NCBI GenBank assembly: GCA_022729755.1
Contig: DZAZ01000002.1
Location: forward strand, 1,926-65,925
Origin: Helicobacter cetorum
GTDB taxonomy: Bacteria; Campylobacterota; Campylobacteria; Campylobacterales; BB28
Direction of reading: 5' to 3'
Length of the DNA stretch: 64,000 nt
Of the stretch, positions 10,233-40,708 are shown piece after piece; the first letter of the stretch is position 1, and every line of letters begins with the position of its first letter. The notes beneath the pieces were generated by a model that made no database searches, was not told where the DNA came from, and saw only the letters and a list, made by a program, of their open reading frames with translations. The position numbers and the translations under genes are program-made.

Positions 10233-10397
10233 GTTGAAATTTTTTTCATAAGTAATTTTTTTTCAAAATCTATATAAAAATATAAGGTATCTCAAAAGAG
10301 ATTTATTTGTCAAATCTCTCATTATAATCATACCTTTCTACACAAATATTAAAGAGAACGGTTATTGCTTTATGAAACTAAAAAAGGTTTTGAAATT

Positions 10398-11092
10398 ATG
10401 GAATTGAGATTAAAAAAAGATTTAATCAATTGGTGAAAAGTGCAATAAGTGTAAAAGAGAGAGCTACAAATGGGCTTAAACTATTGATTAAAAATGTTGA
10501 ATTGTTTTCACAAGTTCAAGCAAGTTGGAGGTTTTTCAATAATAATAGTGTAACAGTAGAAGCACTTTTTGATAAAATATCAGAAAATTTGGAGACAGAG
10601 ATAGATACTCATTGCGATAAATATCTATTGGCAATGTCAGATTGGTCACATTTGGATTATAAAAAGCATACATCAAAAAAAGAGCTAATATCTAAAAACA
10701 AAAAAGATAACTGTAAACAATTAGGCTATGATTTGCAAACAACAATAGCAGTGAGCGATAAGAGTGGACAGCCCATAGCACCGATAGTACATAACTTAAA
10801 AACAAGTAAGAAAGTTTATTCAACTTATGATAATAATATATCAAAAGAAGCTACACACTTAGAAGAGTTGGCTTTGCGAACTAGGTGGATAAAGGAAAAT
10901 TTAAATATAAAAAAACAGATAGTTCATATTGTAGATAGAGAGGCAGATAGTATCGCATTTATGCGGGAATTAGATAAAAATAACGAGAAGTTTCTCTTAA
11001 GAGTAACTAATACAAATAAAATTCACTATTTAGAAAACAATGAAGATATAAAACAGATAGATTTAGCCGATAAATTGGGACTTGGCAAGTAA
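10398..11092 (+). pseudogene. IS4-family (Tn5/IS50-like) transposase, frameshifted near the N-terminus and truncated after about half its length
   Basis: SWRFFNNNSVTVEAL, LLAMSDWSHLDY and IVHIVDREADSIAFMRELDKNNEKFLLR align by eye with Tn5 Tnp AYRFIRNPNVSAEAI, LLAIEDTTSLSY and VIAVCDREADIHAYLQDRLAHNERFVVR. The ATG at 10398 encodes MELRLKKDLINW then a stop, and the homology continues in another frame (KSAISV...). The ORF ends at ~220 aa, where ~450-480 aa would be expected. Confidence 0.75.
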
Positions 11093-11099
11093 TAATATA

Positions 11100-11180
11100 A
11101 CTCAAATCAAAACTTCAAAAAAAACAAGAGATTCTTTATTGCCAAAATTAATGAGCGGGAAAGTGATGGTGGAGATATGA
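11100..11180 (+). pseudogene. 3'-terminal remnant of a type I restriction specificity subunit (hsdS tail)
   Basis: A start-less frame reads ...ITQIKTSKKTRDSLLPKLMSGKVMVEI*. RDxLLPKLMSGxV is the typical C-terminal conserved helix of HsdS proteins. Its TGA overlaps the ATG of the first reverse transcriptase (ATGA). Confidence 0.35.
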
Positions 11181-12565
11181 AGCAATCGTTTAATGTTGAA
11201 AATTTTATAAAAATATATTATGACGAAAACAGAAAGGGTGATTATTTAGATGGTATATTTCAAGAATTTGGCGAATTAAAAGACATTGGACAAGAAATTA
11301 AACAAATCAATCAAAATTTTAGAGATAAAGTATATACAACACAAGCACAAAAAGAAACTGCAAATCAAAGAAAAGAGGAATTATTAAAAAGTAAATTTGA
11401 TAAGTTGGGAATAATATTATTAACTGTAGAAGAAAAAATCGATAAAAAAAACTATCACATATCTATGATTACTAAATCCATCAAAGGTAAAACAGTTTAT
11501 ACAATAGATAGAAGCAACATTGAAACATTTTTTTTATTTAAACAGATTCAAAAAAATATACAGCATTCATTTAAAGTAAAACAAGCTGATAGAAATAAAA
11601 TAGTATCTCAAGTAGTAAATATGCTTGATAATGGATTTCCAAAATATATTATAAGAACTGATATTACAAGCTTTTATGAGTCTATTCCTCATGATGAATT
11701 AAAAAAAGTCATAAGTAGAAATCATATACTAAGCCCATTATCTAAAAAAGTTATCAATGAAATCTTAAGACAATATCAGTCTATAACTGGTCAGGATAAA
11801 GGGATACCAAGAGGAATAGGCATAAGTGCTTATCTTGCAGAGTTGTATATGAGAGATTTTGATTATGACATCAAAAACTTGAATAATGTAACTTATTATG
11901 CAAGATATGTGGATGATATTATCATTATTTTTACACCAAATAATAAGTATGAAAGTATTGATTATTTAAGTTTGATAAAACAATGTATTTTAAAAACTAA
12001 ACTAAGTTTAAATGATAAAAAGACCGAAAAAATTGATTTTCTCAATATGAAAAGCTATAAACTAGAGTTTTTAGGATATCAAATTAATTTTAATCATATT
12101 AAAAAATTAGAGTATGAAATTAATATCAATCTTAGTCATAAAAAATTTAGAAAGTATCAAAGAAAAATACAATCAATGATAAACAACTACAATCTTTCAA
12201 GTAAATTTGATGAAAAAAAAGCAAGAAAACAAATGATTCGACAATTAAAATACTTAACTGGAAATATTAGATTTTTAGGAGTAAAAAAAGATATTCTAAT
12301 AGGAATTTACTTTTCAAATCAAAAATTATTTAAAACTGATAGTTTAGAAAAGCTTGATAATTACTTATATACAAAAATAGATAAACATGTAAAACCATAT
12401 ACAAAAATTACTTTAGATTTAATGCAATTAAAAGATAAGCTAAAAACTTATAGTTTTAAAAAAGGCTTTGAAGAAAAAATATTTTATAGATTTAAGAAAA
12501 GTAAATATATTAAATTTTCATCAAAAGACTTAGAAGAAATTTTATCTGGTTGGAAAAATTTATGA
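11177..12565 (+). CDS. Reverse transcriptase, defence-associated (UG3 / Drt3a-like)
   Basis: RT motif A TDITSFYESIPH, motif B GIPRGIGISAYLAELYM, catalytic motif C YARYVDDIIIIF and thumb-like LEFLGYQI and YLTG. Length 462 aa. No maturase, endonuclease or retron-type accessory domain. Confidence 0.8.
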   Translation: MKQSFNVENFIKIYYDENRKGDYLDGIFQEFGELKDIGQEIKQINQNFRDKVYTTQAQKETANQRKEELLKSKFDKLGIILLTVEEKIDKKNYHISMITKSIKGKTVYTIDRSNIETFFLFKQIQKNIQHSFKVKQADRNKIVSQVVNMLDNGFPKYIIRTDITSFYESIPHDELKKVISRNHILSPLSKKVINEILRQYQSITGQDKGIPRGIGISAYLAELYMRDFDYDIKNLNNVTYYARYVDDIIIIFTPNNKYESIDYLSLIKQCILKTKLSLNDKKTEKIDFLNMKSYKLEFLGYQINFNHIKKLEYEININLSHKKFRKYQRKIQSMINNYNLSSKFDEKKARKQMIRQLKYLTGNIRFLGVKKDILIGIYFSNQKLFKTDSLEKLDNYLYTKIDKHVKPYTKITLDLMQLKDKLKTYSFKKGFEEKIFYRFKKSKYIKFSSKDLEEILSGWKNL

Positions 12566-14586
12566 GCAAAAAATTTAAAAAGAAACAAAAAATTACATAC
12601 CTAAAAGAAAGAGCCGTTTTATCAGATACTCTGCCTTATGAAACACCAGCGATTTTTTCAAATAAATATTTTTATAGGTTTTTAATTCAAAATAAAATAG
12701 AAATACAAGATAGTGAAATTAGTTTTGATAATTCAAATCCAGATATTATTCAAATATTAAAACTTTTATTAAATGTTAATATTGATGACGGTCGAGCTCT
12801 TTTTAAAAAAAGTGAAAGAAATATTCCTTTTACTTTTAAAATTGCACATAAAAAAAATGATTTTAGAAATTTGTCTTTGATTCATCCATTAAATCAGTTG
12901 ATGGTTGTAGATTTTTATGATAAATATAAAGACAGTATAAGATACTTTTCAAATCAAAGTGAATTTTCAATTAGAAAACCATTTAAAATTGCAAAGAATA
13001 GATATATAAATGACTATCTTAAAAAGCAAAAAAAAGGACAAACCTCTCACAGTAAAATTGAGATACACGATAAAGAAGAAGAACACTTAAAAAGTTTTTT
13101 TACTTATAAAAAATACAGTAATATTCACGGATTCTTCGAGTCGTATGAATATCAAAGATGTGAAAAAAAATTTGAAAAACTTTATAAATTTGATATTAAT
13201 AAATGTTTTGACAGTATTTATACACATACTATTGCATGGGCACTTTTAAACAAGGAAATAGTAAAAGATAATTTAGATAAAAAATTAGATGCTACATTTG
13301 CAGGAAAGTTTGATAAATTGATGCAAAATATGAACTATGGAGAGACAAATGGCATTTTAATTGGTGCAGAAATTTCTCGCATATTTGCTGAGCTAATTTT
13401 ACAAAAAATAGATAAAAATGTACAAAATAAACTTAGAAAAAAATACGAATATTTGCATAAAACTCACTATGAAATTTTCAGATATATAGATGACTATTTT
13501 ATTTTTTATGATGACGAAGAAGTCAAGGATAAAATAATTGAAACTTTTAAACATGAATTAAAAGAATATAATTTATATGTCAGTGATACCAAAACAATTG
13601 AATTCGTAAAACCAATTATTACAGATTTGACAATTGCAAAAACAAAAATAACAGACTTGATAAATGAAAACTTTAGTTATAAAATAACAGACAATACAAC
13701 TGACGATGAAAAACAATGGAGTATTTCATTAAGATCTAGAGATGTTATAAAAAGATTTAAAATCATAATTAAAGAGACAAATATTGACTACAAAGATATT
13801 TTGAACTACTCAATTGCAACAATAGAGAAAAGATTTTTAAAAATAATTGAAAAACTTAAAAATTATGATAATCATCGGTTATATGTTGATATGTTTGTTG
13901 CTTTCACTATTCAGCTACTAGATTTTTTGTTTTTTATATATTCCGTATCACCTAGAGTTACATCGACTATTAAAATAGTTTCACTTATTAGTAAATTATT
14001 ACAATTTATCAAAGATGATAGATCGAATAAAAAAATACTAAAAAATTATCAAGTTGAATTAATTTATAAAAAAATTTATGATGAAATTTTTCAAATATTG
14101 AAAAAAAATAGATTAAAAGAATATACACAGAATGAAACATTGTATCTATTGCTTACATTGAATGAGTTAGCTAAAGATTACAGGCTAGATGCTGAGTTCT
14201 TAATTGAATATTTTTTTAATGATGGGATAGAACTAAATTACTTTGTAATAGTAAGTTTACTTTATTATATAAAGGATATTCGTCGGTATAGTGAAATAAA
14301 AATTAAGCTCTTAGAATGGATTGAAAATAAATTCAAAAATTGCAATATAGACCATTTGAGAAAAAATACAGAATTAACATTGTTGTTAATGGATTTAATG
14401 ACCTGCCCATATATTAGTAATTTAGATAGAAATAAATTTTTATCTTTAAATGGCATAACTGATTCAGCTATTCAAACTAAAATCATTTGCTTTTCATCAA
14501 AACAAAAATATTGGTTTATTAAATGGCAAGATTTTAACTTGGCTGAAGAGATAGAAATGAAAAAAAGTCAGGAAGTTTATAGCTGA
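12562..14586 (+). CDS. Second reverse transcriptase with a long helical C-terminal domain (UG8 / Drt3b-like, AbiA/AbiK class)
   Basis: Motif A FDINKCFDSIYTH, motif B NGILIGAEISRIFAELIL and motif C IFRYIDDYFIFY, followed by ~330 aa of helical repeat-like sequence. The ATG at 12562 overlaps the stop of the first RT (ATGA). The track's alternative TTG start is 12550. Confidence 0.75.
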   Translation: MSKKFKKKQKITYLKERAVLSDTLPYETPAIFSNKYFYRFLIQNKIEIQDSEISFDNSNPDIIQILKLLLNVNIDDGRALFKKSERNIPFTFKIAHKKNDFRNLSLIHPLNQLMVVDFYDKYKDSIRYFSNQSEFSIRKPFKIAKNRYINDYLKKQKKGQTSHSKIEIHDKEEEHLKSFFTYKKYSNIHGFFESYEYQRCEKKFEKLYKFDINKCFDSIYTHTIAWALLNKEIVKDNLDKKLDATFAGKFDKLMQNMNYGETNGILIGAEISRIFAELILQKIDKNVQNKLRKKYEYLHKTHYEIFRYIDDYFIFYDDEEVKDKIIETFKHELKEYNLYVSDTKTIEFVKPIITDLTIAKTKITDLINENFSYKITDNTTDDEKQWSISLRSRDVIKRFKIIIKETNIDYKDILNYSIATIEKRFLKIIEKLKNYDNHRLYVDMFVAFTIQLLDFLFFIYSVSPRVTSTIKIVSLISKLLQFIKDDRSNKKILKNYQVELIYKKIYDEIFQILKKNRLKEYTQNETLYLLLTLNELAKDYRLDAEFLIEYFFNDGIELNYFVIVSLLYYIKDIRRYSEIKIKLLEWIENKFKNCNIDHLRKNTELTLLLMDLMTCPYISNLDRNKFLSLNGITDSAIQTKIICFSSKQKYWFIKWQDFNLAEEIEMKKSQEVYS

Positions 14587-14761: not shown

Positions 14762-15706
14762 ATGAATAACACCCCACTATACAAAATTACATCAAAAATA
14801 CTAAAACTCTCCACTAAAATTAGTGAAGAGCTTACAAAACTTCAATTGAATGGTGCTACAAAAGTAAATCCAATGCTACGAAAAAAAAATCGTATCAAAA
14901 CATTAGCAGGGACTTTGGAGATAGAGGGTAATTTTTTAGGAGAAGCAAAAATTACAGCTATTTTGGATGGTAAAAGAGTTTTAGGAACTTTAAAAGAACT
15001 AGCTGAAGTAAATGGAGCTATAAAAGCCTATGAAAAACTTGATAAGTATAGATTTGATGAACTAGATGATTTACTTTTAGCACATAAAATTTTAATGAGT
15101 GATATTTTAACAACAGCAGGAAATTTTAGAAATGTGAATGTAAAAGTTGGTGAGCATATCGTTCCACAATCACATATAATAAATTACTTAATGAAAAATC
15201 TTTTTTATTGGCTAAAAAATAGTGATGAACATATGCTTTTAAAATCTTGTATATTTCACTATGAATTTGAATTTATACATCCGTTTTCAGATGGAAATGG
15301 CAGAATTGGAAGATTTTGGCAAAGTGTTATTTTAAATAGTTTTAATCCAATTTTCTCACTTCTACCAATTGAAAGTATAGTAAAAGACCATCAAGAAGAG
15401 TATTATAGTGCGATTGAAAATTCCACTGCACTTGGCGAAAGCGCTCCGTTTTGTGAATTTATGCTTGAGATGATATTAAAATCTATGCAAAACACTTTAA
15501 AAAGTGACCCAAAAAGTAACTATAAAAGTGACCAAAAAGTTTTATTACTAATGCAAGAGAATAGCAAAATTACTATAAATGAGCTGATGGGAAAACTCTC
15601 TATGAGCGAATCTGGTATTAAAAAAGTTATAAAAAAATTAAAAGATGAGGGGATTATAAAAAGAATTGGGAGCCTGAAATCAGGAGATTGGAAAGTAAAA
15701 ATATAA
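14762..15706 (+). CDS. Fic-family protein (AMPylase-type) with a C-terminal winged-helix domain
   Basis: Canonical Fic motif HPFSDGNGRIGR. N-terminal inhibitory-helix motif TLEIEG ([ST]xxxE[GN], class II). The C-terminal MarR/wHTH-like segment is INELMGKLSMSESGIKKVIKKLKDEGIIKR. Confidence 0.85.
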   Translation: MNNTPLYKITSKILKLSTKISEELTKLQLNGATKVNPMLRKKNRIKTLAGTLEIEGNFLGEAKITAILDGKRVLGTLKELAEVNGAIKAYEKLDKYRFDELDDLLLAHKILMSDILTTAGNFRNVNVKVGEHIVPQSHIINYLMKNLFYWLKNSDEHMLLKSCIFHYEFEFIHPFSDGNGRIGRFWQSVILNSFNPIFSLLPIESIVKDHQEEYYSAIENSTALGESAPFCEFMLEMILKSMQNTLKSDPKSNYKSDQKVLLLMQENSKITINELMGKLSMSESGIKKVIKKLKDEGIIKRIGSLKSGDWKVKI

Positions 15707-21171: not shown

Positions 21172-21633
21172 ATGAAAGATACTAAATTTATTATTCAACA
21201 TTTGAAAAATGACCCCCGATTTAGCAAGTTAAAGCAATATGAATGTTTTAATAAATTAAAAAAAATATTATCAACTAATTTACAAAATGCGATAAAATCA
21301 ACGTATGAAAAAAATAATATTTTATACTTCATATTAGTAAATCACATATATAAAATGGAATTTAATTATAGCTTAAAACTAATAATTAAATTATTAAATA
21401 CACTTAAATCTGAACATATTGAGTGTCGAGAAATTAAAGATGTAAAATTTTTTATAACGAATAAAATTGATGATTTTAAAGATTTAGAACAAAAATCTAC
21501 AAATATTTTTTATGAAGAAAAATCTAAAGGTGATTTTAAAAATTTAGCTGAAGACAAAAAAATAAAAGAGATTTTTGAAGATATAAGAAATATAATTTTA
21601 AAAAATAATAATAAAGAGATAGAAAAAGAATGA
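21172..21633 (+). CDS. Hypothetical protein
   Basis: 153-aa ORF and the first gene of a three-gene overlapping set ending in ttcA. No confident motif. Confidence 0.35.
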   Translation: MKDTKFIIQHLKNDPRFSKLKQYECFNKLKKILSTNLQNAIKSTYEKNNILYFILVNHIYKMEFNYSLKLIIKLLNTLKSEHIECREIKDVKFFITNKIDDFKDLEQKSTNIFYEEKSKGDFKNLAEDKKIKEIFEDIRNIILKNNNKEIEKE

Positions 21634-22367
21634 GTTTAGAAGAATTAATAAACAGTTTAACATACGAAGATTTACAAAAAATAAATGAAGAGTTTCAAAA
21701 AAAAGAGTTGAAAACTCCAATTTTTTTATACTCTAAAATGACAATGGAAATCTTAAATTCAATAGTAAATATAGAAAAAGAGTATAACAAACATAGATTA
21801 GATGAATGGTTTAATTTTGAAATCAAAATAGATAAAGAAAGCGAAATATTTTTGCTTGAACTATTAGAAAGAAATGAATTTTTACTAAAAAGTTATAATG
21901 AAGAAGAGTTGAAAATGAAATTTTTGTCTCTCATATTAAATAGAGTAAATTTTCAGACAATACAAAAAAGAGTTAGAGATTTTTATGAAGCTAAATTAAC
22001 TTATAAATCTGAAAATTTTATACTAACAGGTACGACAGATTATTTGGTTTCAAAGGGATTAGAGTATGTGCAAAAACCATATTTTTTTATTCAAGAGTTT
22101 AAAAAATCAATCGAAAACTCTGACCCTGAACCTCAATTATTGGCTGAATTAATATCCGCAGTTGAACTTAATAATGCTCATTTTATGAGAGGTGCTTATA
22201 TTATTGGCGAAAATTGGTACTTTGTGATTTTAGATAGAGTTACAAAACATAACTATAAATATTATGTAAGTTCATCTTTTAATGCAACGAAAATAGAAGA
22301 TTTAAAAGCAATTTATAAAAATTTACTATATGTTAAAAATGAGATAATGGAGTTAGAAGCTAAATGA
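21630..22367 (+). CDS. Hypothetical protein with a possible PD-(D/E)xK nuclease-fold motif
   Basis: GTTDYLVSKGLEYVQKPYFFIQEFKKS fits D-x(n)-E-x-K. Its start and stop overlap both neighbours. Confidence 0.35.
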   Translation: MSLEELINSLTYEDLQKINEEFQKKELKTPIFLYSKMTMEILNSIVNIEKEYNKHRLDEWFNFEIKIDKESEIFLLELLERNEFLLKSYNEEELKMKFLSLILNRVNFQTIQKRVRDFYEAKLTYKSENFILTGTTDYLVSKGLEYVQKPYFFIQEFKKSIENSDPEPQLLAELISAVELNNAHFMRGAYIIGENWYFVILDRVTKHNYKYYVSSSFNATKIEDLKAIYKNLLYVKNEIMELEAK

Positions 22368-23119
22368 TAGAAATAAGTAAAAAACTTTTAAGAACAGTTG
22401 GTAAAACAAATGCTAAATATAATTTAATTGGTGAGGGTGACAAAGTTTTAATTGGATTAAGTGGTGGAAAAGATTCGCTAACTCTCGCACATATTTTAAA
22501 ACGAATGCAAACTCATACTCCATTTAAATTTGAATTTGAAGCAGTTACGATTACTTATGGAATGAGTGAAAAATTGGATTTTTTGAGTGAACATTGCAAA
22601 AAATATGACATAAAACACTCTATTTATGACACTGAAATTTATGATATTGCAAAAGATAAAATTAGACACAATAGCTCATATTGCAGCTTTTTTAGTAGAA
22701 TGCGACGAGGTGCTTTGTATACCTATGCACTTGAAAATGGTTTTAATAAATTAGCACTTGGTCATCATCTTGATGATGCGGTTGAGAGTTTTTTTATGAA
22801 TTTATTTTATAATGGTTCAATGAGGGCAATGCCTCCTATTTATAGGGCTACAAATGGACTTTTAGTGATTAGACCTTTAATTTTTGCAAGAGAAAAGCAA
22901 TTAATTGGTTTTGCACAAAGTAATAATTTTATGGTTATAGGTGATGAGGCTTGTCCTGCGATGAGGTTTGATGTTAAAAGTCCATATGCAAGGGAAAAAA
23001 CAAAAGAGTTTTTAGCAAAACTTGAAGATGAACAAAAAGATATTTTTACAATGTTTAAAGCTGGGTTTGAGCATATTCACTATGATACATTTTTTGATAA
23101 AGAGATGTTAAAAGTTTAA
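22364..23119 (+). CDS. ttcA: tRNA 2-thiocytidine(32) synthetase TtcA-family PP-loop ATPase
   Basis: PP-loop GLSGGKDSLTLAH, plus CSFFSRMRRG and a second Cys cluster (GDEACPA). Confidence 0.8.
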   Translation: MIEISKKLLRTVGKTNAKYNLIGEGDKVLIGLSGGKDSLTLAHILKRMQTHTPFKFEFEAVTITYGMSEKLDFLSEHCKKYDIKHSIYDTEIYDIAKDKIRHNSSYCSFFSRMRRGALYTYALENGFNKLALGHHLDDAVESFFMNLFYNGSMRAMPPIYRATNGLLVIRPLIFAREKQLIGFAQSNNFMVIGDEACPAMRFDVKSPYAREKTKEFLAKLEDEQKDIFTMFKAGFEHIHYDTFFDKEMLKV

Positions 23120-23135
23120 TCTACAATGCCGATTA
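23109..23135 (+). promoter_or_regulatory. Sigma28 (FliA)-type promoter upstream of fliL
   Basis: TAAA-N15-GCCGATTA (consensus TAAA-N15-GCCGATAA). It lies 31 nt upstream of the fliL ATG, inside the 3' end of ttcA. Confidence 0.5.
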
Positions 23136-23166
23136 AGTAGAATATAAATTGTAATTAGGAGAAAAA

Positions 23167-23679
23167 ATGGCTGATGAAAAAGATAAAAAAGAAGAAAATG
23201 GCAAGAAATCTTCAAGTTTAGTTTTGATTATAGTAGGTATTTTAGTTGTTGTAATTTTACTAATTGGTGGAATTGTAGCATTTATGCTTTTATCAAAAGA
23301 TGAAACGGCAACAGCCACAACATCAGCAGATGGAACTCAACAACCAGTGCAAAGAAAACAACTCGATGATTTAAGTGTTGGTCCAATTTTTCCAGTTGAC
23401 CAATTTATTGTAAATTTAACAAGCGATGGTGGAAAAAGATTTTTAAAAACGAAGTTAGAATTAGAGTTAAATGATGCTGATTTATTGACAGAATTAGAAG
23501 GTAAAAAACCGAGAATAAGGGATATCATTATTAGAGTTTTATCATCTAAAACAGTGGAAGAAATTTCAACTCCAAAAGGTAAAGATAAGTTAAAACAAGA
23601 GTTAATTACTCAATTAAATTCAGTTTTACTTGATGGTCAAGTTGTGCGATTATATTTTACAGAATTTGTAATTCAATAA
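23167..23679 (+). CDS. fliL: Flagellar basal body-associated protein FliL
   Basis: A charged N-terminus, a single TM helix (LVLIIVGILVVVILLIGGIVAFML) and then the FliL domain (FIVNL...RFLKTKLELEL...). Confidence 0.8.
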   Translation: MADEKDKKEENGKKSSSLVLIIVGILVVVILLIGGIVAFMLLSKDETATATTSADGTQQPVQRKQLDDLSVGPIFPVDQFIVNLTSDGGKRFLKTKLELELNDADLLTELEGKKPRIRDIIIRVLSSKTVEEISTPKGKDKLKQELITQLNSVLLDGQVVRLYFTEFVIQ

Positions 23680-23682
23680 ATT

Positions 23683-24687
23683 ATGCAAAAAACTTTTATA
23701 ATTGCTGAAGCTGGAGTTAATCACAATGGCGATTTAGAGTTAGCTAAAAGGCTTATAAATATTGCTGTTATGGCTGGGGCTGATGCCGTTAAATTTCAAA
23801 CATTCAAAAGTGAGCATTTAGTTAAAAAAGATGCTAAAAAAGCTTCTTATCAAATCAAAAACACAGAAAATAGCGAAACTCAATATCAAATGCTTAAAAA
23901 ACTTGAACTTGATATGAAAGCTCACAAAGAGTTGATTGAATATTGCAATAAAAAAGAGATTATGTTTTTATCAACTCCTTTTGATTTAGAAAGCATAAAA
24001 TTACTTTATGATTTAGGCTTAGAGATTTTTAAAATTCCTTCAGGCGAAATTACAAATTTTCCATTTTTAAGAGAAGTTGCAAAACTTGATAAAAAAGTAA
24101 TTCTTTCAACTGGAATGAGTAGACTTTGCGAAATAGAAGAGTCTCTTGAAATTTTATTAAATTATGGAACTAAAAAAGAAAATATCACGATTCTTCACTG
24201 CAATACTGACTATCCAACAAAGTTTGAAGATGTGAATTTAAAAGCAATGCTAACTATAAAAGATGCTTTTAAAGTAAATGTTGGCTATTCTGACCACACT
24301 TTAGGCATAGAAGTGCCTATTTCAGCCGTAGCTTTGGGGGCTAGTATTATCGAAAAACACTTCACAATTGATAGAGAAATGCAAGGACCAGACCATAAGG
24401 CGAGTTTAACTCCAATTGAATTACAAGAGATGGTAAAAGCTATTAGAAATATAGAGATTGCTTTAGGAAATGGAATAAAAAAGCCAACTAAAAGTGAAGC
24501 TAAAAATATAGAAGTAGCTAGAAAATCAATTGTAGCCAAGTGTAAAATTAAAAAAGATGAAGTTTTTAGCGAAGAGAATCTTACAACAAAAAGACCAGTA
24601 AATGGAATAAACCCAATGAGATGGAATGAGGTTATAGGAAAAGAGGCTAAAAGAGATTTTAGTGAAGATGAATTGATAGAGGTATAA
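23683..24687 (+). CDS. Nonulosonic acid synthase (NeuB/PseI/LegI family)
   Basis: [24 protein letters not shown], the DHT motif and a C-terminal SAF/antifreeze-like domain. Length 334 aa. The subfamily cannot be assigned by eye. Confidence 0.85.
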
Positions 24688-24689
24688 TA

Positions 24690-25739
24690 GTGAAAATTAA
24701 AAAAATCGAAATAGAACATTTTAAACATTTAAGAGATATAAAAATAGATAATATTGGAGATTATCTATTAATCATAGGAGATAATAAAGCAGGAAAAAGT
24801 ACACTTCTTCAAGCTATAGCTTTAACAGTTGAATTAGCAACGGGAGTTATTAAAAATAGAAGTGAGTTTCATTGGGGAAATATACTATTAGAACAAGATA
24901 GAATTGATACTTTTAATATTAACATTATATTGGAATTAGATAGAGAAGAGATTAAAAATACTATAGAGTTATCTAATAAAATTGAAAGAAAAAATAAAAT
25001 AAATTTAGATCAGTTTTTGAATAAAAATAGTTTAGAAATTGAATTAAAGTTTGACAATAGCAAAAATAAACCATTTATTTATCCTAAAGATAGAATGTAT
25101 CTATTATCTGGTAGGTCATATTTAGCTCAACTTATTAGTCAAGACAGAATTAATTCAGAAAATAGATTAAATTATTATAAAAATATTGGAGGGGTTTATA
25201 AATTTAATTATAATAGAGTTTATCCAATTTCTCTTTACCATAAACAAGAAACAAATTTAAAATCTTTAAAAGTACAATTAAGAAACTTATGGAGTACACA
25301 TAAATCAGAAGCTAAAAATGAAAATATTCCAGATTGGATTAATGAAATAACAGAAAAATTTAAAAATGTTTTTAATGGCTTTAGAATGTTAGGTCCAGTA
25401 TTAAAAAGTAATGAATTAGTTGATACAGATGATTTTTACTTTTATGTAGAAGATGGTGAAAAAAATAAGTATGATATTGAAGAGTTTTCAAGTGGAGAAG
25501 AGACACTTTTTAAAATGATTTGGCATAGTGTAGTATTTTCTATGTTTAAATCTATTATTTTAATAGATGAAATTGAACTTCATTTAAGTGAAATGGAACA
25601 AAAGAAACTATTTTTAAATTTAAAAAAAATCTTTCCAAATTCTCAATTTATAATCACAACTCACTCAAGATACTTTTCAGAACAGATTTTTAGTGAAGAT
25701 GATATTGTTGTTTTAGAAAATGGTAAGAGGATAGGTTAG
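24690..25739 (+). CDS. ABC/AAA_15-21-type ATPase, AriA-like
   Basis: Walker [10 protein letters not shown] (res 30-38), signature-like FSSGEE, Walker [12 protein letters not shown] and H-loop TTHS. GTG start 3 nt after the upstream stop. Confidence 0.65.
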
Positions 25740-26479
25740 TGAGTAAATTTGATTTAAGTTTAAGTAAAAGTAGAGAACTTATCATAGAAGGAATTAAAGG
25801 AAGTTTTGATTATAAATTTTACTCTAAAGTTTTAAGAGGTATTTTTGGTAATTTTGAACCTTGTGGTAGTCAAAAGTGTATAATTGAAATAGCAAAAAAC
25901 AAAAATGCTTATTCACTTCAAGATAGAGATTATAAAGATATGGAAGATAGTAATTTAGACTCTATTTTTACTCAAAATAAGTTAGTTTCAAAAGAAAATA
26001 AATCATTTAAGTTAAAACACACTGAAATTGAAAATATACTGCTACTTGCAATAGATGAAAAATTTAATATAAATTTAAAAAATATAATTTTAAGTAACTT
26101 AAATATTTTAATAGAAGCTACAGCTATTAGAATAGTAAAATCAAAAAGTTTAGAACCATTCTTTAAATTTAGATATAACTATTTAGAGTTTAATAATTGT
26201 AATATCAACTTATTGTTAAGAGATATAAATAGAATTGAAATAAGCCCATTAATAAATCGTTGGAAACGTGTATTAAAAGATTTTATTGATAACAATTTCG
26301 ATAAAGCAATGATTATTTTATCAGGTAAAGATATTTGGAAATTTATAGAAAATTGTGATAAATACAGTATAGATTTAAATAAACATTTTAAAGATACTTT
26401 TGATAAAACAGATAATAGCGAAATGTTAAAAATTAGTATAGTTAAAAAATTAAAAGATGACATAGAGAGTTTATTGTAA
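25739..26479 (+). CDS. DUF4435 / Toprim-like nuclease, AriB-like
   Basis: LIIEG (E17-G18), LQDRDY (D62-x-D64) and TEIENILL (E96-x-E98-N99) follow the DUF4435/OLD-type Toprim motif order. The start overlaps the ATPase stop (TAGTG). Confidence 0.6.
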   Translation: MSKFDLSLSKSRELIIEGIKGSFDYKFYSKVLRGIFGNFEPCGSQKCIIEIAKNKNAYSLQDRDYKDMEDSNLDSIFTQNKLVSKENKSFKLKHTEIENILLLAIDEKFNINLKNIILSNLNILIEATAIRIVKSKSLEPFFKFRYNYLEFNNCNINLLLRDINRIEISPLINRWKRVLKDFIDNNFDKAMIILSGKDIWKFIENCDKYSIDLNKHFKDTFDKTDNSEMLKISIVKKLKDDIESLL

Positions 26480-26487
26480 GGATAGAT

Positions 26488-27213
26488 ATGAGAATAATCG
26501 CAAGACTTGATGTAAAGCCCCCTTATGTTGTAAAACCTGTACATTATGAGGGGCTTAGAAAAATTGATACTCCAAAAGAGTTAGCACTAAAGTATTATAA
26601 ACAAGGTGCTGATGAGGTAATTTATATAGATATAGTCTCAAGTTTATATCAAAGAGAAATTTTATTTGATGAGATTAAAGAGGCAAGTGATGGAGTTTTT
26701 GTGCCATTTGGAGTTGGTGGGGGAGTTAGCAAAATTGAAGATTTTTCAAAACTTTTTCATTATGGTGCTGATAAAGTATTAATCAACACAAATGCAATCA
26801 AAAATCCAAATATTATTGATGAAGCGAGTAAAATTTTTGGCTCACAAGCAGTTGTTATTAGTATTCAAGCTAAAAGAGTTGGAAAAAAATTTGAGTGTCA
26901 TACTGATTGTGGGAGAATTCCAAGTGGGAAAGATGTGGTTGAATGGATAAAAGAGGTTCAAAATAGAGGAGCTGGAGAAATATTTTTAAATTCAATTGAT
27001 TGTGATGGAAGAGGACGAGGGTTTGAGCTTGAGCTTATAAATGAAGTAATTGCTAATTCAAAAGTGCCAATTATTGCAGGAAGTGGAGCAGGAGAGTTAG
27101 CTCATATTCTTGAAGTTGCAAAGCTAAAGCCCGATGCTATCGCGATTGCTAGTATGCTTCATTATGATAAAATTACTATTTCACAAATAAAAGAGTTACT
27201 TGAAAAAAATTAA
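26488..27213 (+). CDS. Imidazole glycerol phosphate synthase cyclase subunit paralog (HisF-like, glycan-locus type)
   Basis: (beta/alpha)8 HisF pattern: IIARLDVK, VPFGVGGGV, and GAGEIFLNSIDCDGRGRG. Confidence 0.75.
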   Translation: MRIIARLDVKPPYVVKPVHYEGLRKIDTPKELALKYYKQGADEVIYIDIVSSLYQREILFDEIKEASDGVFVPFGVGGGVSKIEDFSKLFHYGADKVLINTNAIKNPNIIDEASKIFGSQAVVISIQAKRVGKKFECHTDCGRIPSGKDVVEWIKEVQNRGAGEIFLNSIDCDGRGRGFELELINEVIANSKVPIIAGSGAGELAHILEVAKLKPDAIAIASMLHYDKITISQIKELLEKN

Positions 27214-28426
27214 AATTTTATTTAACAAAGCAATTATTTTAAAATCCTTTTTAATCGCTATTTCATTTTCACTTTTTATCTATTTGGCTTATTTTAATAT
27301 AGAAGTAAAATTAATAAACTCTATTTTAGCGGTAATTTCACTATTTTTTATTTTAAAAGCTAATAAAATTGAATCTTTTTGGATAGGTTTTTTTATTGGT
27401 ATTTTTTGGTTTTATTGGATAAGTTTGAGTTTTAGATATTATGATTTAACTTTTTTAATTCCATTTATTATTTTGGTCATAGCTTTAGTTTATGCAATTT
27501 TATTTTTCGCATTAGGGTTTATTTCAAATATTTTCTTAAAAGCTTTAATTTTTATTTTTATCTTTGATTTTATTGAACCACTTAATTTTAATTGGTTTAA
27601 GCCTGAACTTATATTTATTGAGAGTTATTTTGGAGTACAAAAGTGGCAATTTGGACTTATTATGTTTGCAATTGCTCTATTTATATATTTAAAAAAATAT
27701 AAATTTTTCCCACTAATCCCATTAATTGCTTCACTTAATTTATTCTTTAATCCTCAAAATATCGATTTACCAAAATTAAAAATTTTCATTTCTGAAACCA
27801 AACTTCCCCAAAATATAAAATGGAAAAGAGAAAATTTAAAAGAGATAGTTGCGAATAATTTTAATATTATAAATTCAGCCATTTCAAATGGTTATGATTT
27901 AGTAATTTTACCTGAAGCTGCTTTTCCACTTTTTTTGAATAAAGAGCCGATTTTAATGGATATGTTAAAAGCTAAAAGCGAAAAAATAGCGATAGTTACG
28001 GGTGCATTGAAATATGAAAATGAAAAATTTTTTAACTCTAGTTATCTTTTTATTGATAATGAAGTTAAAATTGCTGATAAAGTCGTTTTAGTTCCATTTG
28101 GTGAAGTTATTCCTCTTCCAAAGTTTTTGGTGGACTTAATTACAGAAATTATTTTTGATGGAGCAAAAGATTACGATACTGCCCCAACTCCGAGCGATTT
28201 TAATATCAAAGGTGTAACTTTTAGAAATGCGATTTGTTTTGAAGCTACAAGAGAAGAGATTTATCAAAATTCGCCAAAATATATTCTGGCACTCTCAAAT
28301 AATGCTTGGTTCAAACCATCAATTGAGCCGACACTTCAAAAATTGTTAATGAAATATTTTGCCACAAAAAAAGGGGTGATAATTTTTCACAGTGTAAATA
28401 TGAGTGGTAGTTTTGTCATAAAATAA
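27200..28426 (+). CDS. lnt: Apolipoprotein N-acyltransferase
   Basis: ~190-aa multi-TM N-terminus, then a CN-hydrolase domain with LVILPEAAF (Glu) and NAICFE (Cys). Confidence 0.75.
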   Translation: MKKIKILFNKAIILKSFLIAISFSLFIYLAYFNIEVKLINSILAVISLFFILKANKIESFWIGFFIGIFWFYWISLSFRYYDLTFLIPFIILVIALVYAILFFALGFISNIFLKALIFIFIFDFIEPLNFNWFKPELIFIESYFGVQKWQFGLIMFAIALFIYLKKYKFFPLIPLIASLNLFFNPQNIDLPKLKIFISETKLPQNIKWKRENLKEIVANNFNIINSAISNGYDLVILPEAAFPLFLNKEPILMDMLKAKSEKIAIVTGALKYENEKFFNSSYLFIDNEVKIADKVVLVPFGEVIPLPKFLVDLITEIIFDGAKDYDTAPTPSDFNIKGVTFRNAICFEATREEIYQNSPKYILALSNNAWFKPSIEPTLQKLLMKYFATKKGVIIFHSVNMSGSFVIK

Positions 28427-35853: not shown

Positions 35854-37302
35854 TTACAAAGATGTAACCCCAACTCTTGAAATGTGATAAGCAATATTAT
35901 GTTGAATATCATTAACTAACTCTTTTCTTGCTCTAAATAGCAACTTAAGATTCTCAAGTGTTTTAGGATTTAATCCAAATATATGTCTTAAACTAAGCAA
36001 TAAAATATAATTTTGACTTTCATAATTAAATGAGAATCCACTTTTATAAAAATTATCTAACTTTTTTATACACTGTTTATCAAATGGAACTAAATAACCA
36101 AATATTAACCTTGATTTTTTAAATTTATTATTTGAATAGTCACAATATGGAGTGAATTCTATTAAAATTGGTTTGATGGAATCTAAAGTATCTTGTTTTG
36201 TTTTATTTTTAATTCTTTCATTATATTCATCTTTAGCTTCATTTTGTTGTTTTTCAAGTTCACTTTTATATTTTGAATTATAATCATAAATTTCATCTTC
36301 AAAAATTTTTTTATAATCATCATATCCACAAACATTTTCGTTTAATTTATCACAAATATTTAAATAACTCTCAAAACAAAATATATTTCCTGGATACATT
36401 TTTTTATTACTAGATAATGGAATCTCAAACAAAAGTTTGCTATTAACAATATATGTGTTTTCATTATTTTTAACTTGTAAATCTAAATTTTTTAAAGTGT
36501 TATTTGTAGTTTCATTAGAGTTTGAATCTTCAACACTTTTTTCTATTGTGTCTTGAAGTACCATATTTAAAGCTGTATATAAACCTTTTCTTTTCTCTTC
36601 TTTGTTTGGAGATTGATTAGTTCCGACTATTGACTTAATAGCTCCATTTAATAAATCTCGATTTTTATCTTGATTCTCTATATCTAAAAACATATCAAAT
36701 ACTTTTGCACTTGATTTTTGTATTTGGCTCTCCCACTCTCTTAATAGATTGAAATAGTCTAAATTTTGATTTAAAGAATTTTTTATATCGTTAATTAAAT
36801 AATTGATAGATTTATTGCAAAAAATATTAAAATGGTGTTGATAATCAGCTAAAGTTAATTCTTTTTTATTTATACACCATTTCATTTGTTCAAATTTTTT
36901 TATAATGTTAATTTCATTTTTTTTATAATCATTTTTATCTAAAGTAACTATTGGATAAAATTTATATTTTCTCTCTTTTAATTTATCAATTAAAACATTT
37001 CTCAGTTCATTATGTTTTGACCATATTATTAATATAAATGCTCCATTATCCTCAGATAAATTTCTTGTTATTGATGAGTATATAGGAGAAATCGTACTTT
37101 TGTTAGAACTACTAATTTTATCATCTAATGTTAAATCAGCAAAAATATACCTAACATTGGTGAATTTATTTTTCTTTTTACTCGTTTTAAAGTTAATGTA
37201 AATACTTTGAATACCAATATCATCTAATGCTTCTCTTAAATTTTGTATTTCTTCAGGTTTATCATCAAAAATTAAAACTTTTGTATTATTTACACTATTC
37301 AC
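35854..37302 (-). CDS. Receiver (REC)-like domain protein with an uncharacterised ~350-aa C-terminal region; third gene of the dcm operon
   Basis: The N-terminus reads KVLIFDD (D13-D14)...YIFADLTL (D56)...LIIWS (S95)...K, which follows the CheY-like acidic pocket, phospho-acceptor, Ser/Thr and Lys order. The rest has no motif I recognise. The start overlaps the upstream stop (ATGA at 37299-37302). Confidence 0.45.
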   Translation of the reverse strand: MNSVNNTKVLIFDDKPEEIQNLREALDDIGIQSIYINFKTSKKKNKFTNVRYIFADLTLDDKISSSNKSTISPIYSSITRNLSEDNGAFILIIWSKHNELRNVLIDKLKERKYKFYPIVTLDKNDYKKNEINIIKKFEQMKWCINKKELTLADYQHHFNIFCNKSINYLINDIKNSLNQNLDYFNLLREWESQIQKSSAKVFDMFLDIENQDKNRDLLNGAIKSIVGTNQSPNKEEKRKGLYTALNMVLQDTIEKSVEDSNSNETTNNTLKNLDLQVKNNENTYIVNSKLLFEIPLSSNKKMYPGNIFCFESYLNICDKLNENVCGYDDYKKIFEDEIYDYNSKYKSELEKQQNEAKDEYNERIKNKTKQDTLDSIKPILIEFTPYCDYSNNKFKKSRLIFGYLVPFDKQCIKKLDNFYKSGFSFNYESQNYILLLSLRHIFGLNPKTLENLKLLFRARKELVNDIQHNIAYHISRVGVTSL

Positions 37303-39476
37303 TTTAATTCTCCTTTTTTAAATTCTAAAGCTATTGTCGCACCGTCAATAAAATCTTCTTCTAAATTCAAGTTTTTTATTTTATATTCTTTATTAGTAAT
37401 AATTTTTAAAGCACCTAAATTTTGCTTCATTATTTCATTAGAGAAGTACAAACCAAGACCTTTTCCAAATTCATTTTTTGTAGTTTTAAATGGTAATTTT
37501 GCAATATCTTCTGATATGGAAAATCCTAATCCATTGTCAGCTATTATTAATTCTATTGAATTTTCTTTTTCAAAAACATCTATTAAAATTTTTCTATCTT
37601 TAATCATCTTTTTATAATCTAGCCAATAAATTGAATTATCAAACAAATTCATTAAAACTTGATTAGTCAATTTAGGAAAACAATTAATATAAAATTTTTT
37701 ATCATTTGTTTTATCAATTAATTTTATTTTATGGTCTTCAAATCTTGCTTCAAAATATATCATACACATTTCTATTAACTCATTAACTAATGTATTTTTT
37801 TGTTTATCATTTTCTAAAAATTTTGCAACTCCTTCAATTATAGTTGATAATGAAATAGCTATTTTTTCTATATCATCAAAATTTTTACTTTTAATAGTTT
37901 TGTTTAAAGAGTGAACTATTTTTTCAATTTCGTGTATTACTAAACTATATGCAAGTCCTGCACCTGAACTTTTCAATACAATATCTTTCATACTATTATA
38001 ATTTTCTTCTACTTTTTCAATAAGATGGATAACTTCATCTCTCTTTTTTTCATCAGGAATATATTTTGTAAGCTTTTCCTTACTCTCTTCTATAATTGCT
38101 AATGTATCTCTATCACTATCTTGTTCTTTTGCATATTGTGTTCTAAATTTATCTTTATCTTCATTTTTTAAAAAATTTACTTTATTTATGATATTAATTA
38201 CTATATCTCTAAAGTTATAATAAATTTTATCTTCAATAAATCCTTCACGATTTGTCTTTTCAACTAATCCACTGCTGTTTTTCCCATCTAAAAATACAGA
38301 TGATATAATATTTCTATTTCCTATCTTTGAAGTTGGAGCGTTGATTCTACTTGCATCCATTCCAAGCCAATCATTGCCTTCCTCTCCATAATCATAAATT
38401 CTCATTCCATCTCTATATACTCTTACACCACCATTTTCTTTAACAAAACTTTTCAAACCACTTCTATCAGATATGTTACTTAAATCTAATGTAGTTTTAT
38501 CAAAATCAAATATGTAACCTTTTATATCTATCTCTTTAATACCATCAAATGGTATATCTTCAAATTTATCTCTATTTTTTTCTTGTTTCTCTTTTTCTAT
38601 CTCTCTTCTAATAAAGGGATTTTTTGCTATATATTCATCAACTTCTGTAACTTCTCTAGCTTCTGCTCTTTCCATATACCTATATGGTTGAAATTTATAT
38701 TTAAAGTTTGTAACTTTACTTATTTTATTTCCATTCTCATCTTCAACTTCACTTGCCTTACATTCAAAATACCATAAAGCATATCTTTTTAAAGTCTCTA
38801 ATGATAATAATCCCTCTTTCCAATCTTCTAAATTTGTCTCTATCTCTATATTAAAATTATCTCTTGTTTCAAATGGAGAAGTTAAAGCAAAAATAGAGCG
38901 ATATAACTCTCTAAAGTCTCGTTTACTCCACTCTTTTCTTAAATTTGTAACTCTAATATATGTACCTTTCTCTTCACCAATAAAGAAAGAGGCTTTTCTC
39001 TCTTTTAGAGTAATTAGTTTATCTGATAAATACTCATCACCACTAAATTCACTCCAATCAATGCTTAAAACTACCTCTTTTGAGTTGGCTTTTTTTGTAA
39101 TTAACTCTATCTTATTTCCAAGTTTATGTACACCAAATCTACCAATTCCCTTTTCGCCGATTGGTCTTCTATTACAATCACTTATAAAGTTTTCACTATT
39201 TTTTTCCTCTTTATTATTAGTTCCAGGTTCCATCCAAATATTATTGATAATATCTATATCCATTCCAAAACCATCATCAATAATAATTATTTCTCCATTA
39301 GTTAAGTTATCAATATCATTCATTATAACTTTTACATTTCTTGCACAAGCATCATAAGAGTTTTTGATAATTTCTGAAAGTGCAATTTTTTCATTTCTAA
39401 TAAGTTGGTCACCAAGTTGTAAAAGCAATCTTGCTTTTGGTTTAAATGGTGTGGTAACTTCTTTGTACTCTAACAT
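37299..39476 (-). CDS. Dual Bergerat-fold ATPase: N-terminal MORC/Hsp90-like GHKL module plus C-terminal histidine-kinase core (DHp + CA)
   Basis: N-terminal motifs are ALSEIIKNSYDA (E35, N39, D42), IIIIDDGFGM (D68-G-x-G71) and GEKGIGRFG (~107-115). C-terminal motifs are the H-box VIHEIEKIVHSL (His515, codon 37932-37934), N-box LMNLFDNSIYW, G1 ADNGLGF and G2 GKGLGL. The start overlaps the dcm stop. Confidence 0.65.
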   Translation of the reverse strand: MLEYKEVTTPFKPKARLLLQLGDQLIRNEKIALSEIIKNSYDACARNVKVIMNDIDNLTNGEIIIIDDGFGMDIDIINNIWMEPGTNNKEEKNSENFISDCNRRPIGEKGIGRFGVHKLGNKIELITKKANSKEVVLSIDWSEFSGDEYLSDKLITLKERKASFFIGEEKGTYIRVTNLRKEWSKRDFRELYRSIFALTSPFETRDNFNIEIETNLEDWKEGLLSLETLKRYALWYFECKASEVEDENGNKISKVTNFKYKFQPYRYMERAEAREVTEVDEYIAKNPFIRREIEKEKQEKNRDKFEDIPFDGIKEIDIKGYIFDFDKTTLDLSNISDRSGLKSFVKENGGVRVYRDGMRIYDYGEEGNDWLGMDASRINAPTSKIGNRNIISSVFLDGKNSSGLVEKTNREGFIEDKIYYNFRDIVINIINKVNFLKNEDKDKFRTQYAKEQDSDRDTLAIIEESKEKLTKYIPDEKKRDEVIHLIEKVEENYNSMKDIVLKSSGAGLAYSLVIHEIEKIVHSLNKTIKSKNFDDIEKIAISLSTIIEGVAKFLENDKQKNTLVNELIEMCMIYFEARFEDHKIKLIDKTNDKKFYINCFPKLTNQVLMNLFDNSIYWLDYKKMIKDRKILIDVFEKENSIELIIADNGLGFSISEDIAKLPFKTTKNEFGKGLGLYFSNEIMKQNLGALKIITNKEYKIKNLNLEEDFIDGATIALEFKKGELK

Positions 39477-40708
39477 AACATTTCCTTTATCTTCTCCCCT
39501 ATTTTTTCAGCCATAAGAGGAGGTACAGCATTTCCTATTTGTTTAAATATAAAAGTTCTAGGTCCTTCAAAATAGAAGTCATCAGGAAAAGATTGAACTC
39601 TTGAAGCCTCTCTAATTGAGAGTGAGCGGAGTTGATTAATGTCAGGATGAATGTAGTAGTGTCCATCCATTGCAATGTGTGCTAACATCGTATGAGTTGC
39701 CTCTAAATCAGCTTTTACAACATTAAAACGATTTACAAAAGTTTCTATATTTTTATGCTTTCTTAATCTTTCTGGTAACTCATCATATCTTAATCTCTTT
39801 TTTTTTCTATTCCATAACTCTATCGCTATTTCATAAATTTTTCTATCATTATCATTGTGCGGTCTAGTTTCGTGTTGAGTTAAAATATTAAAATCTTTTT
39901 CTCTAATTTTACTAAAGATTAAATACTCATTTGAATTTTTTTTATATCTATTTTTACCCTCTATTTTACTGCCTGGTTCAACTTCTGGTAAATCATTTAG
40001 TATTTTTTCTACTTTTGTATCTTTTGGTAAATTAACTTTTTCAAAAGTTGGATAACTTAATTTTAACTCTTTTTTCCAACCAATAATAATAACTCTCTTT
40101 CTATTTTGTAACACTCCAAAATCAAAAGAGTTTAAAATTTTAAACTCAAATTCATATCCAACTTCTCTTATCTCTTTTTGTAAATCTTCAAAATATTTTC
40201 CATTTGAAGCACTCAAAAGTCCTGGTACATTTTCAAATACAAACATTTTAGGTTTAAAATCTCTTAAAAATTTTACATAGTGTTTATATAAAGTATTTCG
40301 CTCATCATTAACAACTCTATCTTTCATTCTAGCTCTACCAATTACAGAGTAAGCTTGACAAGGAGGACCACCTATGATTACATCTACTTTTTTACTTATC
40401 TCTTTTAAATTTTTATCTATTTTATTTTTTATCTCTCCATAATTACTATTTGATATAAATTCATTAATAACTAAATCTTTATTACTAAATACATTGTTTA
40501 AAAACTCTTCTCTATCTATCTTTTTTTCTAAGTAATTGTGATATGTTTTTAATTTTTTTTGTTTTTTTAATTCCCAGTAAGCTGTTCTTGTTGAGAGTGT
40601 GTCACAAGCATATTTATCTGCTTCTATGTGTCCAATAAAAGTAGCTCCATTTCGCCAAAAGCCTTCACTTAGTCCTCCAGCACCTGAAAAAAGGTCTAAA
40701 ACAACCAT
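39470..40708 (-). CDS. dcm: DNA (cytosine-5)-methyltransferase
   Basis: Motif I DLFSGAGGLSEGF, motif IV GGPPCQAYS, motif VI ENVPGL, motif VIII QNRKRVIIIG and motif X QIGNAVPP. Confidence 0.9.
   Translation of the reverse strand: MVVLDLFSGAGGLSEGFWRNGATFIGHIEADKYACDTLSTRTAYWELKKQKKLKTYHNYLEKKIDREEFLNNVFSNKDLVINEFISNSNYGEIKNKIDKNLKEISKKVDVIIGGPPCQAYSVIGRARMKDRVVNDERNTLYKHYVKFLRDFKPKMFVFENVPGLLSASNGKYFEDLQKEIREVGYEFEFKILNSFDFGVLQNRKRVIIIGWKKELKLSYPTFEKVNLPKDTKVEKILNDLPEVEPGSKIEGKNRYKKNSNEYLIFSKIREKDFNILTQHETRPHNDNDRKIYEIAIELWNRKKKRLRYDELPERLRKHKNIETFVNRFNVVKADLEATHTMLAHIAMDGHYYIHPDINQLRSLSIREASRVQSFPDDFYFEGPRTFIFKQIGNAVPPLMAEKIGEKIKEMLC

Follow-up and report, generated by a model that had tools for sequence, protein, structure and literature searches.

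A 64,000-nucleotide (nt) stretch of the Helicobacter cetorum assembly GCA_022729755.1 (contig DZAZ01000002.1), referred to throughout as the window, contains two overlapping genes that encode a compact ATPase and a Toprim-like partner protein, and that probably represent a compact, unannotated relative of the anti-phage system PARIS. The first gene, open reading frame (ORF) 1, occupies positions 24690-25739 of the forward strand and specifies an ABC-type ATPase of the AAA_15/AAA_21 kind with 349 amino acids (aa). The second, ORF2 (25739-26479, forward strand), specifies a 246-aa protein with a putative distant relation to DUF4435 and to AriB, the partner protein of PARIS. Both genes begin with GTG and have an AGAGG-type Shine-Dalgarno sequence 8-9 nt 5' of the start, and they overlap by 1 nt, with the TAG stop of ORF1 and the GTG start of ORF2 sharing one base (TAGTG). 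On either side, on the same strand and outside the module itself, lie a gene for a NeuB-type nonulosonic acid synthase (23683-24687), the stop codon of which is separated from the GTG of ORF1 by 2 nt, and a gene for a HisF paralog resembling WbuZ and HisF2 (26488-27213), the ATG of which follows the ORF2 stop after 8 nt. A first-pass annotation of this DNA had described the two ORFs in just this position, with their GTG starts and short spacers, and had taken them for the pair of genes that defines PARIS. Neither is a chance reading frame, since each has a conserved family. What follows is an account of those families, of the place of the pair in the genome and of what the two proteins may do.

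The ATPase encoded by ORF1

ORF1 matches the Pfam profile AAA_15 at 67.9 bits (E-value 1.6e-18, with aa 1-329 on profile positions 1-373) and AAA_21 at 49.5 bits (8e-13), both above the cut-off. The complete set of ABC motifs that had been read from the sequence is present, and in an alignment of 47 ATPases the central residues of each motif are invariant. From the N-terminus, these are the Walker A motif or P-loop GDNKAGKST (aa 30-38, positions 24777-24803; G30, N32, G35 and K36 invariant), the ABC signature FSSGEE (aa 266-271, 25485-25502; S267, G269 and E270), the Walker B motif IILIDEIE (aa 289-296, with D293 and E294) together with the D-loop LHLS (25554-25589; L291, I292, D293, E294, L297 and L299) and the H-loop TTHS (aa 323-326, 25656-25667; T323, T324, H325 and S326), all on the forward strand. 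ORF1 is 27-36% identical, over 93-100% of its length, to a family of ATPases of 347-404 aa. Around 70 full-length homologs in all (338-404 aa, 25-36% identity) were recovered from cyanobacteria, Magnetococcales, deltaproteobacteria, Bryobacteraceae, Pirellulales and many metagenomes. ORF1 is an intact ATPase typical of the defence-type AAA_15/21 proteins. As to which of these proteins it most resembles, its PADLOC scores are alike for the PtuA, NsnB, AriA, AriAB and MAD3 models, with PtuA at the top, and the match is therefore generic for defence-type ABC ATPases.

The partner encoded by ORF2 and its family

Wherever the context of an ORF1-type ATPase was sampled, its gene overlaps that of a partner of 252-283 aa lying downstream, usually by 10 nt, and these partners have no Pfam annotation. 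The reverse also applies, as proteins of the partner family were found only beside ORF1-type ATPases in a sample of 64 sequences, which comprises 61 family partners, ORF2 and its two close relatives. The last word-indexed search gave at least 253 partner clusters, and a precomputed Pfam domain is recorded for none of the 120 listed; the UniRef label 'DUF4435 domain-containing' on two family members was not reproduced with the Pfam copy used and is taken here as a label only. Across the compact clade, the ATPase has a length of about 350-375 aa and the partner one of about 246-285 aa. One relative of ORF2 from the short clade (P0122, 250 aa, on contig L009) is preceded and overlapped by the C-terminus of an ORF1-like ATPase, and it overlaps the next gene in turn by 4 nt (L009 836-913; contig guanine-plus-cytosine (GC) content 0.50). 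Tight packing of the module within a gene array is thus seen again in an unrelated genome.

The motif series EG...DxD...ExEN that had been noticed in ORF2 is indeed there and is conserved in the partner family. Toprim motif 1 (25778-25816) consists of LIIEG, with E17 and G18, and of D24; motif 2 is LQDRDY (25916-25933), with D62 and D64; and TEIENILL (26021-26044) provides E96, E98 and N99. These are followed by the predicted helix AIRIVKS (26123-26143) and, in a C-terminal helical domain, by SGKDIW (26321-26338), all on the forward strand. In an alignment of six sequences, E17, G18, D24, D62, R63, D64, E96, E98, N99, R131 and G196 are invariant. When all 64 sequences are aligned, D62, D64, E96, E98, N99, A129, R131 and G196 remain so, and E17, G18, D24, K197 and D198 are kept in at least 90%. 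With such conservation across 64 partners, the motifs of ORF2 are more than a product of chance. In one member of the short clade (L010), DRN takes the place of DRD.

ORF2 itself stands well apart from its relatives. Just two relatives, at 31-36% identity, emerged when 1.84 billion representatives were searched exhaustively with phmmer, a word-indexed homolog search returned only ORF2 itself, and phmmer gave no match among PDB sequences. Profile comparison nevertheless connects it to the rest of the family. The ORF2 clade aligns with the remaining partners in hhalign (92.9%, E-value 3.6e-7, 134 columns), and a partner-family hidden Markov model (HMM) built without the ORF2 clade scores ORF2 at 17.5 bits. 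When that clade-free model was used to rank 3263 ORF segments from the window and all loci, ORF2 came just under the known partners (E-value 3.4e-4), and the single ORF from outside the family with an E-value below 1 was an AriB-type protein of Pseudoalteromonas (0.017), the next standing at 1.1. To judge from these comparisons, ORF2 is a further diverged and shortened member of the partner family. An AlphaFold2 model computed from the family alignment (predicted local distance difference test (pLDDT) score 80.6, predicted template-modelling score 0.79), which was used in place of a single-sequence model with a pLDDT of 38, has an N-terminal strand-helix-strand-helix-strand core followed by a helical C-terminal domain. 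In the model, E17 closes strand 1 (aa 13-17) and D62 and D64 come after strand 3, so that the core has the predicted layout of a Toprim domain. Weak Pfam matches to bDLD3 (bacterial Death-like domain 3) in nine of the 64 sequences, the best with an E-value of 0.0019, might be a sign that the C-terminal half of the partners is a helical domain of the adaptor type.

Several comparisons tie the partner family to AriB. The PADLOC model for fused AriAB, PDLC02981, is matched by 59 of the 64 sequences (best E-value 7.7e-10), the AriB model PDLC02983 by 19 (best 1.7e-9) and a second AriAB model by five, and no PADLOC family other than AriB and AriAB was matched at an E-value of 0.01 or below. Pfam DUF4435 is matched weakly by five of them (best E-value 7e-4), and profiles for Old-Toprim, RloB and AbiL by none. 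PDLC02981 is the best model for the partner family, and on its 694 positions the two proteins are collinear, with aa 194-341 of ORF1 falling on 238-388 and aa 6-114 of the partners on 434-542; the present system differs from the fusion in consisting of two separate genes, and the model is only partly covered. Against Escherichia coli AriB (8UX9_A), the partner-family profile attains an E-value of only 0.5 with HMMER. That alignment places the AriB segment LCDREF, containing D88 and E90, on LLDRDF of the partners, and LENYFFNP, containing E122, on IENYLIDP, by which D88, E90 and E122 correspond to D62, D64 and E98 of ORF2; the assignment of E26 and D30 to E17 and D24 is by motif position and a low-confidence hhalign alignment. 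In AriB, these five are the acidic residues of the Toprim site, and the substitution E26A abolishes defence (PMC11464382).

A comparison with two AriB-type plasmid proteins, which served as positive controls, points the same way. PGAP gives both the label DUF4435; they share 48% and 32% identity with a fragment of E. coli AriB and stand beside ATPases of 460-470 aa. The partner family aligns with them in hhalign at an E-value of 2.6e-4 and a probability of 42% over 90 columns, and under permissive settings the collinear stretch grows to 240 columns, with low confidence; the AriB-type profile is made of two sequences, which limits these values, and the global mode of hhalign was uninformative. 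The controls themselves (L100 2752-3684 and L101 2719-3699) do not match PF14491, the Pfam profile for DUF4435, even at an E-value of 1, and have weak matches to DUF3226 and OLD-like_TOPRIM only. Since these AriB relatives are passed over, Pfam-based detection of PARIS may miss genuine AriB clades. On balance, the partner family is a remote homolog of the Toprim core of AriB and DUF4435. The C-terminal half of ORF2 cannot be equated with that of AriB; hhalign found no confident match in AriB for SGKDIW.

Genomic context

The pair had been placed in a flagellin-glycan gene cluster, a description that does not survive a survey of its neighbours. Between 8 and 42 kb of the window, the only glycan-type genes are those for NeuB, which passes the cut-off of the NeuB_NnaB equivalog (TIGR03569) at 521 bits, and HisF2, which is under the cut-offs of both HisF and WbuZ, as is consistent with a HisF paralog. 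The remaining neighbours are mixed and include a citrate transporter, NadB, two ORFs without a Pfam match, a PP-loop enzyme, FliL, Lnt, PilT, GatC, cobalamin and tetrapyrrole genes, TruA and others. From 21172 to 28426 there are nine co-directional genes with gaps of -14 to +47 nt. As this array is equally tight throughout, seamless packing is a style of the genome rather than a property of the pair. Co-transcription of the array, as predicted from the spacing, is plausible; a scan for promoters and terminators ran at background (63 found vs 52.5 expected) and is therefore uninformative on transcription units. At the head of the array are two overlapping ORFs of 153 and 245 aa (21172-22367, forward strand) with GC contents of 0.18 and 0.24 and no Pfam match.

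Elsewhere, NeuB genes do without the pair. No relative of ORF1 or ORF2 is present at any of 80 NeuB loci from a metagenome scan, the NeuB proteins of which are 36-63% identical to that of the window. A HisF2 homolog is nearby in 13 of the 80, and in two of them (L035, GC 0.25, with a 14-nt gap; L046, GC 0.27, with a 23-nt gap) HisF2 comes immediately after NeuB, both on one strand, and the pair is absent. Universal conservation of the pair in this glycan locus, which had been named as a sign of a biosynthetic or housekeeping role, is thus not borne out, and the contexts of the family elsewhere are varied. Close relatives of the genome were not found by a scan of genome contigs anchored on Lnt, and of the host proteins checked, only PilT is not a singleton at 90% identity.

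The flanks of the family differ in every genome, and none of the sampled contexts is glycan-related. One type of flank has a NERD-kinase and an MmeI-type restriction-modification enzyme, a second has an Eco57I fragment and Imm_superinfect, and the rest consist of gatCAB, transporters, sulfatases, trpC and similar genes. In one metagenome-assembled genome (L016 4917-6829, forward strand), a compact pair lies directly 3' of a second pair, made up of a 413-aa AAA_15 protein with a faint DUF2813 match and a 218-aa protein without a Pfam match; the two ATPase pairs stand there in tandem between menaquinone-biosynthesis genes and trpC. Taken together, these varied, non-glycan flanks and the direct adjacency of NeuB and HisF2 elsewhere argue that the pair is an inserted, self-contained module that does not belong to a glycan pathway. 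The simplest explanation is that a self-contained cassette was inserted long ago, by horizontal transfer, between neuB and hisF2, two genes that naturally adjoin. A biosynthetic role in a glycan pathway is rejected, as it has no conservation of context behind it. The GC contents of ORF1 and ORF2 are 0.23 and 0.21, compared with 0.30 for neuB and 0.33 for hisF2. An exact 15-nt direct repeat, TTTTAGTGAAGATGA, occurs at 24657-24671 and 25688-25702, where it codes for FSED near the C-termini of NeuB and ORF1. It is probably a matter of chance in AT-rich DNA, and its two copies do not flank the cassette.

Two other regions of the window deserve mention. In its lowest-GC stretch (0.205-0.25), two adjacent and overlapping reverse-transcriptase ORFs (11177-14586, forward strand) encode proteins of 462 aa (RVT_1, 4.5e-18) and 678 aa (RVT_1, 1.5e-10). 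Before them come a 729-aa WD40 protein and an ORF of 220 aa without a Pfam match, and after them a Fic/DOC protein with a helix-turn-helix (8043-11092 and 14762-15706), and the layout of the two reverse transcriptases may resemble that of defence-associated reverse-transcriptase systems such as DRT type 3. At 35854-40708 on the reverse strand, also at low GC, three overlapping genes encode a C5 cytosine DNA methylase (2e-66), a protein of 725 aa that matches GHKL HATPase_c twice and a 482-aa protein without a Pfam match, which together look like a restriction-modification or other defence operon.

Relationship to PARIS and candidate function

AriA, the ATPase of PARIS, is a protein of about 460 aa that assembles into a hexamer, and its insertions IS1 and IS2 form coiled-coil and trigger-sensing parts. 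In the resting system, AriB is sequestered by AriA. Once a phage trigger has bound to AriA, a step that depends on ATP, AriB is released, dimerizes and introduces nicks into the anticodon stem of tRNA-Lys and related tRNAs (PMC11464382, PMC12409363). An ABC ATPase is likewise joined with a Toprim nuclease in P2 Old, the Gabija protein GajA, AbiL and MADS3-4 (PMC11464382); Old and GajA are single polypeptides, as opposed to the two genes described here. For the detection of PARIS, the published rule looks for an ATPase with at least 32 bits to AAA_15 or 27 bits to AAA_21, adjacent to a partner with at least 27 bits to DUF4435 (PF14491) (Rousset et al. 2022, PMC9122126). ORF1 and the overlapping ORF2 satisfy the ATPase and adjacency part of the rule, and ORF2 falls under the DUF4435 threshold, which is a test of low sensitivity here, since the two genuine AriB-type controls miss PF14491 as well. 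For the same reason, the failure of ORF2 to match a DUF4435 or Toprim profile, which the first-pass annotation had proposed as grounds for refutation, is literal and carries reduced weight.

The likeness to PARIS lies in the two co-oriented, overlapping genes with an AAA_15/AAA_21-type ATPase in first position, in the acidic motifs of the partner (E...D, DxD/E and (I/L)ENY) at positions aligned with those of AriB, and in the 1-nt stop/start overlap, which an AriA-AriB-type pair of Pseudoalteromonas has in identical form. Of the earlier identification as the PARIS-defining pair, then, the type of ATPase, the motif series and the family link to AriB are upheld, and a profile or fold match of ORF2 and the identity of the ATPase as AriA are not. 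Likewise, the motif set and the order of the Toprim strands support the description of ORF2 as DUF4435/Toprim, which obtains no direct profile match and no AriB fold. Because ORF2 is below the DUF4435 threshold, its model does not match the fold of AriB and ORF1 does not have the architecture of AriA, the pair is not filed here as a member of PARIS. It does fit the broader OLD-like kind of ABC ATPase plus Toprim.

The reading favoured here, with moderate confidence, is that the pair is a self-contained module of ATPase and nuclease, that it belongs to a widespread, unannotated and compact clade related to PARIS (OLD class 4), and that it was acquired horizontally and came to lie between neuB and hisF2. 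The earlier suggestion of a divergent or minimal variant agrees with this, in that the clade is compact and the copy in the window, at 349 plus 246 aa, appears to be a more diverged sub-branch of it. Defence function, a physical complex, a trigger and a substrate are proposed by analogy with the systems above. On that analogy, the ABC ATPase would oligomerize and keep the Toprim partner inactive until, having sensed a phage-derived cue in an ATP-dependent manner, it frees the partner. The partner would then cut nucleic acid, which is tRNA in the case of AriB, with a two-metal Toprim site composed of E17, D24, D62, D64 and E98, whereupon growth would halt and the infection would be aborted. The sensing surface of ORF1 is probably different from that of AriA, because ORF1 does not have the AriA insertions.

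A number of observations weigh against kinship with PARIS, against a role in defence or against acquisition from elsewhere. Among solved structures, the ORF1 family is nearest by sequence to PtuA, the Septu/retron I-A effector ATPase (1e-33 to 1e-20 for PtuA-type structures), and it matches E. coli AriA (8UX9_B) at 2e-11 in the C-terminal lobe only. PtuA itself differs in being paired with the HNH nuclease PtuB, not with a Toprim protein, and in its length of 420-550 aa, and the matches to it fall within the conserved ABC lobes. When ORF1 and its relatives are aligned with two AriA-type ATPases (460 and 470 aa), identity is 19-20%, and several insertions and an acidic C-terminal tail of the latter are missing. 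In the case of ORF2, no profile match was obtained in Pfam, PADLOC (at an E-value of 1 or below), NCBIfam or PHROGs, and PF14491 in particular gave none even at an E-value of 1. A whole-chain Foldseek search of the PDB with the ORF2 model gave a best E-value of 1.7, and AriB, which is in the PDB as 8UX9, was absent from the results, as was any other Toprim structure; a search of BFVD yielded nothing. Direct comparison of the ORF2 clade with AriB-type proteins by hhalign is not significant (E-value 0.19), and the PADLOC matches of the partners span only about 110 residues of the N-terminal core. The compact family was not found in a scan of viral contigs, whereas PARIS is often carried by phages or satellites; a viral-contig scan for AriB-type proteins found none. 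Most contexts of the family consist of housekeeping genes, not defence islands. Lastly, the GC content of the pair at third codon positions (GC3) is host-like, and flanking repeats, insertion scars and mobile-element genes were not found at the pair, where there are short AT-rich chance matches only; with a host-like GC3 and no scar, any acquisition must be old.

In one alternative, considered unlikely, the compact family is a distinct type of defence system rather than a small PARIS and has become, in this AT-rich and flagellated host, a fixed and translationally coupled part of a constitutive operon beside surface-sugar genes. Because the insertions that are absent from the ATPase are those that form the trigger-binding pores of AriA, infection would be sensed in another way, one possibility being a direct nucleic-acid or host-process cue, and the substrate of the nuclease may differ from that of AriB.

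Equally doubtful is the opposite view, namely that the pair is bona fide PARIS with shortened orthologs of AriA and AriB, in which an AriA hexamer would sense Ocr-like anti-restriction proteins and AriB would cleave tRNA-Lys. Gene order, overlap and domain pairing conform to it, down to the 1-nt overlap shared with the Pseudoalteromonas pair, as do the passing of the AAA_15/AAA_21 thresholds of the published rule by ORF1, the matches of the partner family to the AriB and AriAB models and the retention of the catalytic residues. Both proteins are, however, shorter than those of the reference pair, as had been remarked from the outset (349 vs 464 aa, a difference of about 115 aa, and 246 vs about 300 aa). 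Moreover, the low identity to AriA-type ATPases, the greater proximity to PtuA, the position of ORF2 under the DUF4435 threshold and the absence of a Foldseek match to AriB all tell against orthology, and the C-terminal half of the partner, which in AriB is the dimerization part of DUF4435, cannot be aligned with confidence.

Slightly less probable again is a housekeeping or RNA-processing role, for which the pair would have been kept in a constitutive operon, either as a regulated Toprim RNase like RNase M5 or with a role in the cell cycle like that of Cran1. The prevalence of housekeeping genes around the family, the seamless packing, the host-like GC3 and the absence from viral contigs are in keeping with such a role. 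There are also precedents in the archaeal OLD-family ATPase Cran1, which acts in the cell cycle (PMC12796447), and in the Toprim RNase M5, the closest structural homologue of the AriB active site (PMC12409363). Yet the family is spread sporadically over distant phyla and has no conserved neighbours, it is missing from all 80 NeuB loci, some of its copies adjoin restriction-modification genes, and the ORF2 clade, with only two relatives in 1.84 billion representatives, is unlike a conserved housekeeping gene. Least probable is that the pair acts as a selfish cassette of the addiction type (toxin-antitoxin-like), or is a remnant in decay and of no present benefit to the host, a view which the scatter of a small, overlapping two-gene cassette over unrelated loci, the strong divergence and shortening of the ORF2 clade and the DRN of L010 might suggest, but which has against it that the ORFs of the window are intact, with every catalytic motif kept and a Shine-Dalgarno sequence before each, and that roles in defence and addiction are not mutually exclusive.

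If the favoured reading, that of a compact, PARIS-related module, is true, then the Pfam threshold for DUF4435 and the coverage cut-offs of PADLOC miss a whole PARIS-like clade, one that covers cyanobacteria, Magnetococcales, deltaproteobacteria, Acidobacteriota and planctomycete-like genomes. The pairing of an ABC ATPase with a Toprim protein is a known and diverse theme that will not surprise the specialist; what sets this clade apart is that it has been overlooked, is minimal and lies outside defence islands. Modules of this sort can be lone insertions in tight housekeeping arrays and as such are overlooked by island-based discovery. With only 349 plus 246 aa, the minimal pair could help to define what in AriA and AriB is indispensable to sequestration and release, and it would offer a small and tractable model.

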